DNA of 64,000 nt, taken from a phage. Made by a program: the position numbers and the translations under genes. The stretch is from sequence record OZ336096.1. One strand, given 5' to 3'. The notes under the pieces are model-generated. The model was not told where the DNA came from. It saw only the letters and a program-made list of their open reading frames with translations, and made no database searches. Positions 29,131 through 48,548 of this stretch are shown in pieces. The number at the start of each line of letters is the position of its first letter. The stretch's first letter is position 1.

Positions 29131-29349
29131 TCATAGCAACTCCAGAATATCAATACGTTCACCCTTAAGGACTCCGGTGCGGTCTCTTGCAATCTTACCG
29201 TCAACGATAAGGATATGCGCGACCTTTAAAGCCTCACGATTAAAACCTTTTAAGAACTTACTAGGCATCACCACAATAAGCATCTCTTGAATCAACTCTG
29301 GAGTATAGCAGTTGTCGTGAAGTTGCTGAATAACGTCTGCAAGTGTCAT
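29131..29349 (-). CDS. hypothetical protein
   Basis: 72-aa ORF. Confidence 0.4.
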   Translation of the reverse strand: MTLADVIQQLHDNCYTPELIQEMLIVVMPSKFLKGFNREALKVAHILIVDGKIARDRTGVLKGERIDILELL

Positions 29350-29400
29350 ATAACCTCCTATATAAGATACAGTATAAGGTACTCTTCCCTGAGCACCTTG

Positions 29401-29934
29401 TCAACTTAGTTTTGCAAACTCTCCGTGGAGTTTAATAGCAGCTTCACAGTAAGCTTTATGGGCTTCTTCAGGGGTGTCATGGTGACCTAAAAACATCTTC
29501 TTACCTTTATAACTTATCTGTGCGACCCACTTACCAGACTTCTTCTTAAGACTTACACCCTTGTACCCAGATTTATTGGTGACTGGTTTACCTTTATTCC
29601 AAGCACTTTGAAAATCATCTGCTTCCCTTAAGTTTACAATCCTGTTGTCAAGCGAGTCTCCGTTGATATGGTCAATGATACCTTTTGGCATCTTGCCATA
29701 CACGTAAAGCCATGCGAGTCTGTGTGCTTTATGTGCTTTCTTGTCAAAATAGATACTAATCTGTTTATGACCACTTGAATCAGTCTGGATATTACCTGCC
29801 ACCTTTCCTGCATAATTACTGTTAAAAACACTAACAGCTCTTGATTTACCTTCTCTACGAAGCCAAGTAAAGACCCCTGTTTCGGGGTCATAGTGCAGCA
29901 GCTCCTTTAAACGTTTTTGTAAAATTAAGTCCAT
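29401..29934 (-). CDS. HNH-AP2 homing endonuclease (free-standing)
   Basis: HNH motif (IDHINGDSLDNRIVNLR) followed by AP2-type DNA-binding domain (YKGVS...KWVAQISYKGKKMFLGHHDTPEEAHKAY); sits immediately 3' of DNA polymerase exon 2. Confidence 0.8.
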   Translation of the reverse strand: MDLILQKRLKELLHYDPETGVFTWLRREGKSRAVSVFNSNYAGKVAGNIQTDSSGHKQISIYFDKKAHKAHRLAWLYVYGKMPKGIIDHINGDSLDNRIVNLREADDFQSAWNKGKPVTNKSGYKGVSLKKKSGKWVAQISYKGKKMFLGHHDTPEEAHKAYCEAAIKLHGEFAKLS

Positions 29935-29937
29935 TAA

Positions 29938-30494
29938 TCAATGTACCTCATACCAGCTCTTACCAACCTTTGCTGTACCAGTTACAAGTGTTTCTTTCCT
30001 CAAACCTAAGTTTTTTGAAGCTTGTCCATACATCCAGTCAGCAATTGCTTTCATATCCTGTGTCATACCCTCTGGACATTCCCAACTATTTTCATCGTGA
30101 TATGCCAGAAGTAACCTTGCTCCGATAGCTGGTTTTCGAGCATTCAGTTTTGTCAGGCCATCTTCACAGGCTTTTCTTGCTGCTAGGTTGATGGCCTCAT
30201 TCTGAATCTGTGCTTCCGAACTCATCAGGAGGTAGTTCAGTAGTTTATGTGGAGATTTGCACCATATCCATGCTCCAGCGACCCTGATATAACCACCTTT
30301 AGCAATTGAAGAATTCTTCCCAAAAACCTCTTCCAGAGCCTTTTTAGACGCCTTAAAATCGGCTTCTAAGCTATCAAGTAACTTCTTAATCTTTGGCAGA
30401 CGCATATAGTAAGTTTGTTTAGTCAATGCACCTTCTTCCGTAGATGATGCTTTGATAGTTTTTGCAAACTTCTCGTCACCTGCACCGAACAATA
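29938..30494 (-). CDS. DNA polymerase (family A, T7-like), exon 2
   Basis: Begins inside motif B (..LFGAGDEKFAK, cf. T7 FLYGAGDEKIG), contains HDE motif C and T7-like C-terminus (KSWYEVH); listed ORF starts with TTG, consistent with an exon rather than an independent gene. Confidence 0.8.
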
Positions 30495-30762
30495 CATCTG
30501 GTCAATACACTCGCAAGGTGTACCAGTTCTCTTATGAACTTCTCCGCATTTCTACGGAGTGTCGGACTATATCACGTAGTAGTAATACTACCGTTGCACT
30601 TGGGAATGGTCATTAGCTTACCACCCTACTCTACTCAGTTCATACATTAAGTATGCTTTTCGATAGTCTCTGAACGTTCCTCTTAAGAGGCTTCGCTGCT
30701 GATTACCATATCTTTTAAGACTTAGGCTTCCAGCAATTCACAACGTTTTACATGCGCCACTG
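30495..30762 (-). ncRNA. group I self-splicing intron (ORF-less) in DNA polymerase gene
   Basis: Conserved group I elements read on the sense strand in order P (AATTGCTGGAA; + coords 30728-30738), Q (AATCAGCAG; 30696-30704), R (GTTCAGAGACTATCG; 30661-30675), S (GATATAGTCC; 30564-30573); proposed boundaries put U at the 5' exon end, G at the intron end, and restore motif B as IYALLFGAGDEK; exact splice sites are inferred. Confidence 0.7.
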
Positions 30763-32935
30763 ACGCATAGATGCCATTTTTGCTCTTCTTACGACCTTTT
30801 GTAATCTCGTGAAGAAGTTCCTCATCCTGTGTCTCCCTACAACGAACAATATCTTCTTCCTTGTTCAGACCAAAGTAAATACTGTTCAGTGTATGCGCAT
30901 CAGTCCCTGTGTAGACTTCATAGAGGTCGTTCTCAGCATCATAACGAAGATACTTGTCAGTTTCTGGATTAAGATACTTATCGAGATGCTTGCAATAGTA
31001 TCTTCCATCCTCTTGCTTAGTGAACTCTACTGACTCTTTACCCTCAGTTACTGCTTTAGTGAAGTCTTCATCACCCATAAAGTTACAAAGAAGAACTAGC
31101 TGGGCTGAGTTCTGGTCAACGGAAACGATGTTAGTCCCCTCCTCACAAATCCACACCTCCCTCATAGGTGCTCCATAGACAGCAGCACCAGACGGTACGT
31201 TTACAATACCATATTGCGTCATACGTCCAGTTGAAGTACCAAACACCATTGCACCAGCACTAAGGCGACCATCTGGACGAATCTGGTTCAACCAACCTTT
31301 TTCATCATCCTTTGAGTTCTCAATAGTCCTGCGTCGGTGCATCAAAGTATAGTACTTAGCAATCTTCTGTCCAAGCTCACCTTCAATCGTATCATAAGAT
31401 GATTCAGTAAGTTTTGGTGAAGTACGGATTAAGCAAGGCTCAAGCAAATCTGTGTACTTCTTCACAGACCAGTTATGTTCAATGTACTGGACACCTTCAT
31501 GTTCAACATAACTCAAGCCGCACCGTTCAACCATCTCCTGCCACTTAGGATGCTTTGTAATCATCTTTTTGTTGTCTTTGAAACGACAAACTTTGACAGG
31601 GCGACCATCTGAATCTTTCTTGTAGTTCCAGTCATCTGGAATCCAGCCAACTGATTTCAAGTAGTCTTTAACAACTGCTACTTGAGTCATACGAGAAACT
31701 TCAAACTCAATTGGTGTATATGGTGCATCAATCAATCCTGTGTAGCGACTTGACTCCAGTCCAAAGTGGTTAACAACATGACTGTTATAGTACTTCACAG
31801 TTTTAACTGTTTTTACTGGCTTCCAGTCTTTGCATTTCTTACCAATCTTTGCGTTCAACTCATTGCAAATTGCACGAGCATCCTTCATTGCTACAAAACC
31901 CTCCTTGTACTCTTCACCAGTTACAGAGTTGGTTGGCGTATAGCAATTTCTCTTTTCAATGTTAAAAATCTTTGTAGTTGGCTTACCAAATGGTTTGATT
32001 TCGTATGTCTGCATCTCACCGTTACGTACCTGCTGACGATACTTTGTCTTAGGGTACTTGGTAATCCTCTTCAGTCCATCTGCATGACCAAATGTTTCAA
32101 CATACTCATTCCAAGCTTTTGCAAACTCTTCTCCAGTGACTTTACCTTTGGTCTTAATAGTTGGAGGAAGATGTGGTTCAACCTCTGAAGCAAGCTCATT
32201 AGTCAACTTGTCAAGTTCCTTTACATGGAACTCCATAAGTTCTTTATCAGCTTTCCAACCATTGATAGCTTGTTGACTCATCCAGAAAGATGTTTCTTTA
32301 GCTCGCATGTAGGTTTCATAAGTGTCTATGCCACACTTCTTAAGCTTGAGATACTCATTATCAAGTGCCCGTTTAGTTTTGGCGTTAATACGGATATCTT
32401 CTACAACACGAGTGAAGATTTCTGCATTCCACACACCCCAATGTTCAATCTCTGGTTTACGAACACCAACACGAGCACCCCATGCAGCCAAACCATGAGC
32501 ACCTTTATAACCCTTTGGAGTTGGTCTATCCATCCACTGAACACGAGACTGGATAAGAGAATCCTGAAAGAAGTTACTCCACGGTTTACACTTTGGATTA
32601 TCAAAGTTCCATAAATCAGGTGCAATGTGGTTGAAAACCCACCAGTCATAACCGAGACCATTATGGATGCAAAGACGTTTTGCCTTTAACGCAAACTCAA
32701 CACCTTCACGCAAACCACCCTTAATGTACTTGGTATACTTGTGACCGAGGATAGGCTCGTCTGTAAAGACCCATACAGGTGGCTCTTCATCGTCAGATTT
32801 ATAGTCTGCAAAGGCCATTACGTGAACTTTAGTGAACTCAAGGAGTAAACCATCAGTTTCTGTATCACCAACCAAATGTAAGTTTTTAAAATCTACGTTT
32901 TCCATTTTTACTCCCTCTAAAATCATTAACCACAT
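30763..32935 (-). CDS. DNA polymerase (family A, T7-like), exon 1
   Basis: 3'-5' exonuclease Exo I motif DTETDG near N-terminus; ends in first half of motif B (RKKSKNGIYA); probable true start at the ATG for MENVDFK (~32905); the listed ORF's last 13 codons are read-through into the intron. Confidence 0.85.
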
Positions 32936-46087: not shown

Positions 46088-47284
46088 ATGAACAAAGTAC
46101 AAATTATTAAAAAGAATGGCTCACTTGAAGAACCGGATATCAAAAAAGTTTTAGTAGCAGTCACAAAGTCAGCTAACAGGGTTGGTTATAAAGAGCTTCC
46201 ACCAGATGTTACTCAAGCCCTTGAGTCAGCATTTATGAGGATTCTGGTAAAATCTACTAAGCAGAATAATTTACTCGTTTCAGTAAATGATATTCACAGT
46301 ATTGTTGAAGGTGCTTTGGCAGAGGTCAATCACGAGATTTATGAGTCTTACTCAACATACAGAAATTACCGTAAAGAGGTTGCTCAAAATTGGGACGAAC
46401 TCTACCAGAAGACTAAAGATACACTCTTCTTAGGTGACCGTGAAAATGCTAACTTTGACAGCAGTTTAATTTCTACGAAAGGTTCAATTATCCGTGGTTA
46501 CCTGACTAAAGAAATCTTTAAACAGTATCATCTAACACCAGAGGAACTTGAAGCCATTGAGAAAGGCTTTATCTATATCCACGATTTGAGAGACCTGATT
46601 TTTGGTGGTATTAACTGTTGCCTGTTTGACATTGGTAAAGTACTAAAAGGTGGCTTTGAAATGTCCGGCATTGAGTACTGTGAACCTAAATCTGTACTGT
46701 CAGCGTTGCAGGTTATCGGTGACGTAGTACTTTCAGCAACTGCACAGCAATTTGGTGGATTTACTTTAGCAGAGATTGATAAGGTACTTGTACCGTATGC
46801 TAAGAAGTCTCTACGCTATCATGCTGAGAAAGCAGCATCTTACGGTATTCCTAAAGAACATTACCATAATTATGTCATGGAGCAGCTACAGATTGAATTA
46901 ACTCAAGGTTTCCAGTCACTAGAGATGAAGCTAAATACTGTACCTTGTAGCCGTGGTGATTTCGCATTCACAACTTTAACATTTGGTTTACTTGACTCAG
47001 ACATGTCTAATGAAGACAACCGACTACAATACATGATTGCAAACACCATTCTTGATGTTCGCATGAATGGACAAGGTAAGAGCAAGAAGCCTGTTGTATT
47101 CCCTAAACTGGTTTATATTCATGACCAGAAGAGACACGATGAGAATATCTGTCAAGGTCAACTGTACAGTAAAGCTATTGAGTGTTGCTCTAAAGCTATG
47201 TATCCAGATTTCTTAAGTGTATCTGGTCATGGTGCTGTAGCAGAGGCTTTTGAGCGTTCTGGCAAGGTAATTTCACCGATGGGT
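46088..47284 (+). CDS. nrdD: anaerobic ribonucleotide reductase (class III), exon 1
   Basis: Class III RNR N-terminal region by overall resemblance; ends ...VISPMG just before the intron. Confidence 0.8.
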
Positions 47285-47600
47285 TAACAGGCTCTATAGC
47301 TCATCTAAAACGTGCCTAAACAGGGAAACTCTACAGATGTAGACAATCCTGTGCTAAATGATGTACGATGTAAGAAACTATACAACATAGGAGTCTTACA
47401 TGCCAAATAACTTCGAATATGAGTTTGAATACATCTAAATGCCGAACGACTAACCGTGATGAATGTAGCGGTGTAGGGTCAAGCGACTCGAAATGGTACG
47501 CTACTTAGAAATAAGTAGAAGATATAGTCTGGACTTACTGGCGACAGTAAGCAGCTTGAATAAAGCGGGGTAAGCTTAGCGAACTTACCTGAACAACAAG
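47285..47600 (+). ncRNA. group I self-splicing intron (ORF-less) in nrdD
   Basis: Exon 1 ends in U, intron ends in G; joining gives PMG-CRAFLSP, recalled as conserved in NrdD; intron holds P-like (AAACAGGGAAA, 47318-47328), Q-like (AATCCTGTG, 47345-47353), R-like (GAACGACTAAC, 47444-47454) and S (AGAAGATATAGTCT, 47517-47530) elements in canonical order; no long ORF. Confidence 0.75.
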
Positions 47601-48548
47601 TGTAGAGCGTTTTTATCACCATACCATAACGAATATGGTGAAGAGTTTTATGTAGGTCGTGCTAATATTGGTGCTGTATCTTTGAACTTACCAATGATTT
47701 ACCAGTATTCTAAAGAGAATGGTTTAGATTTCTGGAAAGAGCTTGATAAGTACCTAGAGATGATTCGCAGCTTCCACAAGAAACGCTACGAAATGATTGC
47801 TAATATGCCAGCAAGTTCTAACCCTCTTGCATTTACACAAGGTGGTCTGTACAAAGGGACTAAGAAACCTACTGATAAGGTTGGCTGGGATATTGTGAAG
47901 TCCTTCACAGCTTCTTTTGGGGTTACTGCACTAGACGAGCTATCTGTTCTTGCTGAAGGTAAGCGACTTCATGAAGTTGGAAGCTGTAGTTTTGCATATG
48001 ATGTTCTGGAATATATCAACATAAAGACTGAAGAGTTTAAAAATGAAGATGGTTTCTTATATGCAGTCTATGGCACTCCAGCAGAATCACTTTGTGGAAC
48101 TCAGCTAAAACAGTTCAGAGATATGTTTGGCGTTATCAAAGGTGTTTCTGATAAAGAATACTTTACAAATAGTTTCCATATGAATGTTGCAGCAGACATT
48201 ACACCATTTGAGAAGCAGGACTTAGAAGAACCTTTCTTCCATATCTGTAGAGGTGGCAGAATCCAGTATGTAAGGGTAGCTAACCCAGAAAACTTACCAG
48301 CACTTAAAAGTTGTATTACAAGAGGGATGTTGAAAGGTTTCTATCAGGGACTTAACTTTGACTTAGCAATCTGTGAACATTGTGGTAACAGACCAAAGGC
48401 TGATGTTGAAGAATGTGAGGTTTGCCATTCACACGATATCTCTGTGATTAACAGGGTGTGTGGGTACTTGTCATTCACAAAAATTAAAGGTCAGTCTCGA
48501 ATGAATGACGCTAAGATGGCAGAAATTAAGGATAGGGTTTCTATGTAA
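47601..48548 (+). CDS. nrdD: anaerobic ribonucleotide reductase (class III), exon 2
   Basis: Reading frame open from 47601 (CRAFLSPYHNEYGEEFYVGRANIG...); Cys cluster and C-terminal glycyl-radical motif RVCGYL. Confidence 0.8.
   Translation, partial: CRAFLSPYHNEYGEEFYVGRANIGAVSLNLPMIYQYSKENGLDFWKELDKYLEMIRSFHKKRYEMIANMPASSNPLAFTQGGLYKGTKKPTDKVGWDIVKSFTASFGVTALDELSVLAEGKRLHEVGSCSFAYDVLEYINIKTEEFKNEDGFLYAVYGTPAESLCGTQLKQFRDMFGVIKGVSDKEYFTNSFHMNVAADITPFEKQDLEEPFFHICRGGRIQYVRVANPENLPALKSCITRGMLKGFYQGLNFDLAICEHCGNRPKADVEECEVCHSHDISVINRVCGYLSFTKIKGQSRMNDAKMAEIKDRVSM

Follow-up and report, generated by a model that had tools for sequence, protein, structure and literature searches.

What separates the two reading frames into which this phage's DNA polymerase gene is divided, and does the endonuclease-like gene directly behind them account for the presence of whatever lies between? 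The window (the whole 64,000-nucleotide stretch of phage DNA that was analyzed, OZ336096.1) comes from a Felixounavirus (a Felix-O1-like phage; 98% to phage L27). It had been proposed in an earlier note that the gap is a group I intron without an open reading frame (ORF) of its own and that its arrangement beside an HNH-AP2 gene recalls collaborative homing. We think that the locus is probably best described as one member of a polymorphic mobile-intron family that occupies a single site, next to a separate HNH-AP2 selfish element. Comparisons were based on about 55 loci and on search tables, from roughly 260 Felixounavirus genomes, with 49 related loci classified for intron state. Rfam model RF00028 (length, 253; gathering score, 50 bits) was used for the intron, and domain calls came from Pfam, PHROG and PDB sequence matches; the mapping of the intron, and what is said of its splicing, draws on DNA-level evidence. 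The polymerase gene is laid out as follows.

30763..32905, minus strand: DNA polymerase exon 1 (family A, T7-like), from the ORF list, the sequence and tblastn
30495..30762, minus strand: ORF-less group I intron, 268 nt, subgroup IA-like, from RF00028, a pairing check and intron-less alleles
29938..30494, minus strand: DNA polymerase exon 2, from the ORF list, the sequence, Pfam and a T7 alignment

Exon 1 begins with an ATG at 32905, preceded by GAGGGAG, which is also the polymerase start annotated in L27, and is collinear with its relatives in tblastn searches. It contributes 714 codons and nucleotide 1 of codon 715 (Leu), and its frame then continues into the intron for 13 codons, up to a TAA at 30724-30722. 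On the other side of the 268-nt gap, exon 2 completes the Leu715 codon with 2 nucleotides and adds 184 codons and the stop; it lacks both an in-frame ATG and its own Shine-Dalgarno sequence, and offers no more than a TTG as a start. Joining the two at 30763|30494 gives a predicted ligated-exon sequence of ...GGCATCTATGCGT|TATTGTTCGG... and a product of 899 amino acids, in which Pfam DNA_pol_A spans residues 703 to 897. The predicted splice yields ...RKKSKNGIYALLFGAGDEK..., which aligns with T7 ...RDNAKTFIYGFLYGAGDEK... (T7 518-621) through motif B. In that alignment, the insertion site falls in the O-helix/motif B, at the codon equivalent to T7 F528, which, by the standard O-helix correspondence, we take to be approximately Pol I position 764. 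Independent proof of the junction is provided by the 39 intron-less alleles found among the 49 classified loci, since these are contiguous exactly at the predicted junction, inside the Leu codon. Thus, the two polymerase frames about 268 nt apart, the exon ending in U30763 and the intron ending in G30495, and the motif B restored by the splice all stand as they had been described. On this reading of the DNA, the polymerase gene carries a genuine group I intron, whose excision would be required to join motif B and to give the predicted 899-residue polymerase, since the exon 1 frame ends after 13 intron codons and exon 2 lacks signals for a start of its own.

The structure of the RNA, as predicted from the model alignment and the pairing check, includes the following elements.

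30751..30769, minus strand: P1 (RF00028 alignment and pairing check)
30679..30690, minus strand: P6a hairpin, CCUC-UUAA-GAGG (genus alignment)
30565..30675, minus strand: catalytic core, 3' half (RF00028 alignment and pairing check)
30675-30664, minus strand: R element/P7 5' strand
30655-30641, minus strand: P7.1
30626-30602, minus strand: P7.2
30598-30592, minus strand: P3 3' strand
30591-30576, minus strand: P8
30569-30565, minus strand: S element/P7 3' strand

The covariance-model search that the earlier note had named as a check returned a match to RF00028 above the gathering score, at 30542-30774 on the minus strand (64.5 bits; E=4.6e-14), covering positions 1 to 253 of the 253 of the model without truncation. 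In its alignment, which includes the P4 5' and 3' strands (GUUCAGAGACUA and GAUAUAGUCC), the P, Q, R and S elements are seen in the canonical order claimed for them. P1 consists of 7 bp between the end of exon 1, UAUGCGU (30769-30763), and the internal guide GCGCAUG (30757-30751), with U30763.G30757 (intron G6) as the pair at the 5' splice site and the omega-G at 30495; intron nucleotides 2 to 5 (AGUG) could form a P10 with UAUU of exon 2. TATGCGT| at the 5' splice site is conserved in all 12 alleles with the intron; the exon flanks read TATGCGT|...|TATT in intron-containing alleles and GCAC|TGCT or GCCC|TGTT in intron-less ones. A total of 76 canonical pairs were checked across P1 to P9.2, including the P3/P7 pseudoknot; intron nucleotide 237 is common to P9.1 and P9.2, so that one of the two has one pair less. 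Two compensatory double changes were seen across the genus (U-A<->C-G in P8 and C-G<->U-A at the base of P6a), and the remaining single changes give wobble or Watson-Crick pairs, in a sample of 11 distinct intron variants whose low sequence diversity limits the support from covariation. The assignment as IA-like is tentative and refers to two hairpins at the P7.1/P7.2 position and the absence of P2, as judged from the RF00028 alignment and the pairing check. No endonuclease ORF is present in the 268-nt intron, which the ORF list shows to be overlapped by two antisense ORFs (54 and 62 aa) only, so that the description of the intron as ORF-less was correct. As a separate observation, blastn searches with the ribozyme core retrieved relatives in an RNA polymerase gene of Schitoviridae and in a DNA polymerase gene of crAss-like phages.

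Elsewhere in the genus, the full intron was found in about 97 records from isolated phages, and the single site occurs in five states: empty, with an ORF-containing (ORF+) intron, with a frameshifted ORF, with the ORF deleted (311 nt) and with the minimal 268-nt form. The ORF+ introns of sister phages measure 801 to 805 nt and carry, in the P6a loop within a 12-bp extended stem, a 160-aa ORF of the Endonuclease_7 family (Pfam, E=1e-19), of which there are two lineages, 79% identical to each other. VpaE1/L022 has a frameshifted copy of this ORF, and the 311-nt intron of phage Mushroom equals the ORF+ form minus the ORF, which would have been lost by deletion between short CTAA repeats. The ribozymes of ORF-less and ORF+ forms are 96 to 99% identical. 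A simple deletion from the long form would not give the P6a of the 268-nt form, and the minimal intron may be either a precursor or a decay product. Within the window, neither an Endonuclease_7 homologue nor a second HNH-AP2 gene was found. VpaE1_ev78, considered as a laboratory-evolved swap of the intron for an HNH gene, was rejected, as this phage was isolated from nature and takes its name from its closest relative.

The exon sequences next to the intron carry traces of its history. Intron-less sites are of two types, the common or consensus 'A' type (...TATGCAC|TGCTGTTCGGTGCAGG...) and the divergent 'B' type (...TACGCCC|TGTTATTTGGAGCCGG...). The window belongs to a polymerase haplotype, here called W, that reads TACGCCC|TGTTATTTGGAGCCGGAGA in its intron-less state; 'B' is the native intron-less sequence of the whole W haplotype family, and the intron-bearing genomes hold an imported tract. 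In the window, A-family-like sequence is limited to -5..+17 around the intron, and the lengths of the imported tracts vary among genomes (L001, L002/L007 and L052). One genome, L009, matches the window almost completely between about 31000 and 29400, except for the intron and some 10 flanking synonymous differences. A 'recoded, endonuclease-resistant' patch, suggested by the synonymous differences between the window and L009/L003, was rejected by the wider alignment. As far as can be read from these alignments, the short donor-type exon tracts beside the intron in a different polymerase haplotype show past transfers. Pairwise breakpoints among 43 distinct polymerase genes were frequent at -1700, -700 and -400, around 0, and at +100 to +350; in this set, the insertion site is not a unique hotspot, and the pattern does not discriminate between explanations.

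Downstream of exon 2 lie the following two features.

29401..29934, minus strand: free-standing HNH-AP2 homing-endonuclease-like gene, 177 aa (Pfam, PHROG and PDB)
29131..29349, minus strand: conserved ORF, 72 aa, phrog_4230, function not assigned, the right-hand neighbor of the HNH slot

That an HNH-AP2 gene lies immediately 3' of exon 2 was borne out: the protein contains HNH_3 (E=9e-15; 54.5 bits) and AP2 (E=1.4e-12; 48.1 bits) domains, both above the Pfam cut-offs, and belongs to PHROG 99, HNH endonuclease; its AP2 part is homologous to plant ERF structures. The gene starts 4 nt after the polymerase stop, approximately 560 nt from the intron insertion site, with its Shine-Dalgarno sequence (GAGG) within the final polymerase codons and its stop codon overlapping a conserved TTGACA of the downstream intergenic sequence. 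The slot that it fills, bounded by the polymerase stop and TTGACAAGG..., is either empty (61 nt) or occupied by one of at least four HNH-AP2 allelic types, all of which share one insertion point. In empty-slot phages, the junction reads ...GGCTTGAAGTACACTAATTAGTATTGACAAGG... and the 72-aa ORF begins 61 nt past the polymerase stop; the final polymerase codons co-vary with the occupancy of the slot, which is mostly empty in phages with an ORF+ intron. The most fitting view of the HNH-AP2 gene is that of a free-standing and independent endonuclease gene in a hypervariable slot, and the likeliest target of its product, we infer, would be the empty slot or the polymerase 3' end in phages without the gene.

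Could the HNH-AP2 protein nevertheless mobilize the intron in trans? It would then cut or nick the intron-less polymerase gene near motif B, with its carrier protected by the intron or by a recoded site, and repair from the carrier's own genome would bring over the intron together with exon 2 and the HNH gene, in one block. The spacing of ~560 nt is typical for free-standing endonucleases and their targets, as in T4 mobE and S-PM2 F-CphI (PMC2988022, PMC3984707), and the introns of the W haplotype, all ORF-less, would need a trans-acting nuclease if they were acquired by homing. All sampled 268-nt introns are in the W haplotype and every W-haplotype genome has some HNH-AP2 gene, so that a helper role is still conceivable. 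Moreover, not one of the 42 database records with the window-type HNH-AP2 allele (defined as ≥94.8% nucleotide identity) has the common 'A' site, all being intron containing or of the divergent 'B' type. However, the same allele stands beside an uninterrupted polymerase gene in 10 of these 42 records (the other 32 have the intron), which does not support the collaborative homing suggested in the earlier note. Phages bumzen and HY02 are examples of an HNH gene in an intron-less genome. The co-inheritance in these records is, in addition, muddied by the ~560-nt linkage and by near-clonal sets (REP5-12, SUT and BPS), which confound the association. A further window-type HNH-AP2 gene with an intron-less polymerase is found outside the 42 records, in L009, and the 'B' site is native W haplotype sequence and not a local recoding. 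L038 carries an 87%-identical HNH-AP2 gene, with scattered conservative differences, alongside a consensus 'A' site. Given the 10 records and L038, each intron-less site type coexists, in a viable genome, with a close variant of the enzyme; the confinement of the endonuclease to intron-protected genomes that would be expected for trans homing was thus not found in this sample. The intron, for its part, also occurs with a different HNH-AP2 type (ORF-less, in L052, phage Meda), and sister phages, JH2 among them, combine the same ribozyme with their own Endonuclease_7-family ORF and an empty HNH slot.

Two further observations bear on the same explanation. Among six genomes with the window-type HNH gene, diversity is 6 to 10% around the insertion site and drops to 0 to 2% over a stretch that begins at about +100 and takes in the whole HNH gene. 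Co-conversion driven by the HNH protein, with its starting point close to the insertion site, could also account for this block, yet it is only suggestive, since choosing genomes by HNH similarity creates such a block through linkage alone. Against this explanation, breakpoints occur all along the polymerase gene and do not cluster where the intron is inserted. I-HmuI and other HNH nickases reportedly cleave the very allele that contains their intron (PMC3428280), and because nickases can tolerate self-targets, a link between intron and HNH gene could exist despite the distribution described above. All in all, we regard homing of the intron through the HNH-AP2 protein as unlikely. The related proposal that an HNH-AP2 nickase acting near motif B drives the block from the insertion site through exon 2 to the HNH gene, together with the intron, through Felixounavirus appears to us improbable as well. 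If it were true, the low-diversity block with its sharp edge at about +100 would be the trace left by the nickase, the group would offer a further natural case of collaborative homing in easily grown coliphages and Salmonella phages, and two routes of intron mobility (by HNH-AP2 and by an intron-encoded Endonuclease-VII-type enzyme) would be competing at one site.

We favor, with the probability indicated at the outset, a mobile intron that is independent of its neighbor. The intron would be a member of one mobile family circulating in Felixounavirus at a single site; because the window's copy encodes no endonuclease, it would persist by vertical inheritance and move only by recombination in mixed infections, at most aided by an endonuclease supplied in trans, for which the enzyme encoded by sister introns would be the most economical candidate. 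The downstream HNH-AP2 gene would be a separate selfish element. A point against this reading is that ORF+ donors should mostly have passed their ORF to recipients, whereas the recipients are without one. One might go further and regard the intron as an immobile relic, a neutral passenger spread by vertical descent and general recombination, without recent help from any endonuclease. The window has neither an ORF in the intron nor an Endonuclease_7 homologue, and the polymerase gene is mosaic throughout, so that ordinary recombination is frequent; furthermore, the shortest flanking tract (-5..-1) is the minimum that keeps P1 intact, and selection for splicing alone could thus shape the tracts. 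Nonetheless, we consider this very unlikely: many sister phages have intact, diverged endonuclease ORFs (79 to 100% identity) in the same intron, whose persistence argues for homing that would be ongoing at this site in the population, and there are several distinct short co-conversion tracts centered on the insertion site. Finally, two CDSs named 'DNA polymerase' are found in most GenBank records, but that two separately translated polypeptides assemble and the intervening RNA is irrelevant is scarcely credible, given a break within the O-helix/motif B, an exon 2 that offers only a TTG without a Shine-Dalgarno sequence, a spacer that matches a group I ribozyme over its full length and has both the proper U.G pair at the 5' splice site and the omega-G, and an uninterrupted gene in relatives that is joined exactly at the predicted splice point.

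These results have a direct consequence for annotation, as most Felixounavirus records give the polymerase as two CDSs, in some cases along with a spurious antisense ORF, and should carry the joined 899-aa product instead. The original Felix O1 paper described introns as absent, which is true of Felix O1 itself and untrue of roughly one-third of the genus. At a single site in an essential gene, these phages display a natural series (no intron, an intron whose endonuclease is intact, one whose endonuclease is decaying, and ORF-less introns of two kinds) and, with a hypervariable endonuclease slot ~560 nt away, form a convenient cross system for homing, trans-homing and co-conversion.

The intron itself is already known from the sister phage Meda, the 2019 announcement of which described an intron in the polymerase gene without an HNH endonuclease and reported no splicing experiment (PMC6486253). 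The Meda polymerase CDS is annotated as a join, and its intron is the same 268-nt element, inserted into this gene at an identical nucleotide position and only a handful of substitutions apart; it differs in having another HNH-AP2 type downstream, its own P8 variant and its own flanking co-conversion tract. Other introns in family A polymerase genes of phages are those of SPO1, SP82 and Bastille (with I-HmuI/II and I-BasI), Pf-WMP3 (I-PfoP3I), phiL7, and the T7-like PhiI and W31 (I-TslI). They are of the self-splicing IA type, to which the present intron may also belong, and, like it, interrupt a highly conserved polymerase motif; in PhiI, W31 and Pf-WMP3, the endonuclease ORF, when present, is in P6a (PMC3428280), as in the sister phages. 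Their positions correspond to E. coli Pol I residues 674, 676 and 881 (PMC3428280), whereas that of the window is in motif B; the intron endonuclease of sister Felixounavirus phages is of the Endonuclease_7 type rather than the I-HmuI-type HNH, and the window's copy has no ORF.

The precedents for collaborative homing, the S-PM2 psbA intron with F-CphI and T4 mobE with the nrdB intron and its defunct I-TevIII, likewise combine an intron with a missing or defunct endonuclease in an essential gene with an adjoining free-standing endonuclease gene (PMC3984707, PMC2988022, PMC2790892). For those systems, experiments have shown that the endonuclease cleaves at or near the insertion site, which for the window would be a prediction. 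The distribution of endonuclease and intron also argues against an obligate link here, because the endonuclease is found in intron-less genomes, the intron is found next to other endonuclease types, and relatives have the intron with its own, unrelated endonuclease gene. Nothing in the evidence departs from established mobile-intron biology. In the homing cycle of Goddard and Burt, invasion is followed by fixation, endonuclease decay and loss; although the order of stages in Felixounavirus is deduced solely from comparing sequences, all of them coexist at one site in one genus.

The 3.8-kb polymerase region matched 262 phage records, nearly all of them Felixounavirus (Felix O1-like myoviruses), with Escherichia phage L27 as the top match (98.1%). 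Two records labeled Campylobacter phage A132/A126 (MG065664/MG065668) and one labeled Staphylococcus phage SA1 (GU169904) also contain stretches 95-100% identical to the Felixounavirus polymerase, intron or HNH gene, which suggests contamination, chimeric assembly or mislabeled hosts. The minus strand of the window reads as follows:

32905-30763 (-), polymerase exon 1
30762-30495 (-), group I intron, 268 nt
30494-29938 (-), polymerase exon 2
29401-29934 (-), HNH-AP2 gene, 177 aa
further downstream (-), small ORFs and then the gene for an ATP-dependent DNA ligase

The exon 1 frame opens at ATG 32905, runs to U30763 and continues through 13 codons of the intron to a TAA, while exon 2 starts at 30494 without a start signal of its own. 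The covariance-model search proposed in an earlier note on this DNA returned a full-length match to the Rfam group I intron model RF00028 at 30542-30774 (-) (64.5 bits, E=4.6e-14), above the gathering score of 50 bits. The predicted join, 30763|30494, yields a 2700-nt coding sequence for an 899-aa protein containing ...RKKSKNGIYALLFGAGDEK..., spanned by Pfam DNA_pol_A at residues 703-897; phmmer aligned residues 705-811 with residues 518-621 of T7 DNA polymerase (RDNAKTFIYGFLYGAGDEK), crossing the junction without a break, as expected from the claim that splicing restores motif B. The strongest evidence for this junction comes from intron-less relatives: among 49 classified loci, drawn from IMG/VR, metagenomes and GenBank, 39 carry an uninterrupted polymerase gene, and all 39 are contiguous precisely at the predicted splice point, within the Leu codon following Tyr-Ala. 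Felix O1 likewise has an uninterrupted, 906-aa polymerase gene (PMC3185647). The earlier reading of a polymerase split over two frames by a group I intron is correct and well supported.

The intron could be written out from P1 to P9.2 with 76 of 76 proposed pairs canonical, although nucleotide 237 is common to P9.1 and P9.2, so that one of these helices is a pair shorter:

P1, exon UAUGCGU with intron GCGCAUG, including U30763.G at the splice site
remaining elements, P3, P4-P6, the P3/P7 pseudoknot, P7.1, P7.2, P8, P9, P9.1/9.2 and omega-G at 30495

The presence of both P7.1 and P7.2 is an IA-type feature, and a 4-bp P10 with exon 2 UAUU is possible. Among 11 distinct variants from the genus, compensatory double changes were found in two helices (U-A<->C-G in P8 and C-G<->U-A at the base of P6a), all other changes lying in loops or preserving pairing. 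As had been noted earlier, the window intron encodes no endonuclease; its sole overlapping ORFs are two on the antisense strand. One of these, a 62-aa ORF (30462-30650, +), appears in L27 (BBJ27117.1) and similar records as a hypothetical protein. It almost certainly reflects an annotation error, made because the intron was not recognised.

The element was already known at the annotation level, since the 2019 announcement of phage Meda describes an intron lacking an HNH endonuclease in the polymerase gene (PMC6486253), the Meda gene, which carries the same 268-nt intron, is annotated as a two-part join, and a noncoding-RNA scan in the later SPJ41 paper reports "two introns" (PMC9951933); we found no splicing experiment on it in the literature examined. 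A second group I intron in the window (47201-47551, +; RF00028, 52.7 bits, E=1.6e-10), also free of an endonuclease ORF, lies within nrdD, the gene for anaerobic ribonucleotide reductase, and splits it into exon ORFs 46088-47287 and 47682-48548. Relatives are intron-less there (~316 nt shorter), collinear with the window, or longer by ~426 nt with an annotated HNH homing endonuclease.

With the polymerase intron as blastn query, its full length was recovered from about 97 records, in three size classes:

268 nt, the window form
780-805 nt, with an insert between intron nucleotides 77 and 80 (P6a loop) carrying a 160-aa ORF
302-311 nt

P6a aside, the ribozymes of these forms are 96-99% identical. 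The 160-aa product matches Pfam Endonuclease_7 (E=1e-19) and has zinc-ribbon-like motifs at its N terminus, its ORF lying inside the loop of a P6a extended to a 12-bp stem (UCUCUGUUAGGA/UCCUAACAGAGA). In the 311-nt form of phage Mushroom, the extended stem is kept and exactly the ORF is missing, between short CTAA repeats. The VpaE1 ORF (L022 5860-6317) is in two frames and likely a pseudogene, and that of EC6 (L008 5864-6343) is just 79% identical to its JH2 counterpart. Judged by these alleles, a single site in the genus shows every stage expected of a homing cycle; the 268-nt form may be a precursor or another decay product. The window intron is an ordinary, previously reported member, without an ORF, of a family of mobile introns that is polymorphic. 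Which Endonuclease_7 ORF lineage is present correlates with the P8 variant and with the flanking 3' exon sequence, implying that recombination has occurred within the intron, somewhere from P6a to P8. Blastn also recovered ribozyme cores with 75-79% identity to intron nucleotides 14-138 from Shigella phage Moonfish (Schitoviridae; L055 2501-2617), in an N4-like virion-RNA-polymerase-region gene interrupted by an HNH ORF, and from crAss-like phage cr3_1 (L056 2501-2629), in a DNA polymerase gene whose parts lie on either side of a 237-aa ORF; this family of ribozymes has thus spread over unrelated phage groups and host genes.

At the intron site, polymerase haplotypes fall into two families, W (window-like; intron-less state TACGCCC|TGTTATTTGGAGCCGGAGA, here B-type) and A (intron-less state TATGCAC|TGCTGTTCGGTGCAGGTGA). 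ORF-containing and 311-nt introns are all in A-family genes; the sampled 268-nt introns are all in W-family genes, each between short A-like tracts: the window's tract covers -5 to +17, those of L001 and Meda reach farther upstream, and that of L002/L007 goes as far as +20. From ~31000 to 29400, intron-less locus L009 differs from the window in essentially nothing but the intron and these ~10 flanking synonymous changes. P1 requires exactly the changes at -5 to -1; with B-type flanks, two P1 pairs would be lost along with the U.G pair. The A-like flanks are co-conversion tracts of differing length, so recombination has occurred repeatedly, with the insertion site at its centre. The polymerase gene as a whole shows strong mosaicism in the genus (seen in window 30400-31200 and homologous parts of L003-L047); its two haplotype families differ at ~20% of synonymous sites, with many switch points (~-1700, -700, -400, 0 and +100 to +350 from the intron site).

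The gene following exon 2 encodes HNH_3 and AP2 domains, as the earlier note had it, the latter homologous to plant ERF domains; neither a second HNH-AP2 gene nor an Endonuclease_7 homologue was found within the 64-kb window. In relatives, the slot between the polymerase stop and the conserved TTGACAAGGTGCTCA... is either empty (61 nt) or holds an HNH-AP2 gene, of which there are at least four types, alike only in overall architecture and in their last 25 residues. The last polymerase codons vary with it: TGG CTT GAA GTA CAC TAA when empty, TGG TAT GAG GTA CAT TGA when occupied, where TAT GAG GTA (window 29938-29960, -) supplies the HNH gene with its Shine-Dalgarno sequence, GAGG. The TGA that ends the HNH gene sits within the conserved TTGACA that opens the downstream intergenic sequence (29399-29404, -). 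The cassette edges are functional signals; a promoter scan called no sigma-70 promoter there. Such a pattern is typical of free-standing homing endonuclease cassettes, which disrupt their insertion site by being present in it. An additional ~206-nt block with a 69-aa ORF separates the HNH gene from a 72-aa ORF in L27 and several relatives and is absent from the window (insertion point 29352, relative to L001 5253-5462; also L009), and the whole polymerase-to-ligase stretch varies as small ORFs are inserted or deleted.

Such a gene beside an ORF-less intron had raised the idea of collaborative homing, with HNH-AP2 targeting the intron insertion site. When intron state and HNH type were cross-tabulated from the search tables, the 268-nt intron was present in 32 of 42 records with a window-type HNH (≥94.8% nucleotide identity), the other 10 (bumzen, FGS030, ULIM9, AN17P8, ph2-2, Z31, ECOH1, CRP22 and two of HY02) having an uninterrupted B-type polymerase and none of the 42 an A-type site. 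A variant with 87% protein identity and scattered conservative differences does adjoin a consensus A-type site (L038), 84% variants adjoin A-like sites in SUSP1/2, and each intron-less site type thus has a viable genome with a close variant of HNH-AP2. Conversely, in Meda the 268-nt intron goes together with another HNH type, and among phages with ORF-containing introns the slot is empty (61 nt) in EC6, JH2, VpaE1 and L021, a 267-nt gap without HNH gene in L023, and occupied by a type-2 HNH in Si3. Intron and window-type HNH-AP2 are therefore separable in both directions, which tells against an obligate link. Coexistence with intron-less alleles is no strict refutation, since HNH nickases like I-HmuI reportedly cleave even the allele that contains their own intron (PMC3428280), and if homing brought the W-family introns, all ORF-less, some nuclease acted in trans. 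In six genomes with window-type HNH, moreover, diversity is 6-10% around the site, 0-2% from ~+100 to the HNH end and then >19%, but linkage and the sampling of near-clonal isolates could explain this block, and breakpoints are frequent along the whole polymerase gene. On the single criterion testable by sequence, the pair falls outside collaborative or trans homing, which we consider improbable here; most likely, the adjacent HNH-AP2 is a selfish element in its own right.

These results are of value mainly as an annotation correction and as a neat natural setting in which to study homing experimentally. The Felixounavirus intron interrupts motif B at the equivalent of T7 F528, roughly Pol I 764 when the O-helices are matched in the standard way, and so occupies a different site from the known group I introns of family A polymerase genes. 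Those are found in SPO1, SP82, Bastille, Pf-WMP3 (Pol I 674), phiL7 (676) and PhiI/W31 (881), with HNH endonucleases, where present, in P6a (PMC3428280), whereas the enzyme encoded by the intron of sister phages is of the Endonuclease_7 type. For the collaborative-homing idea itself, the closest functional analogues are the collaborative or trans homing of S-PM2 F-CphI and T4 mobE (PMC3984707, PMC2988022, PMC2790892).
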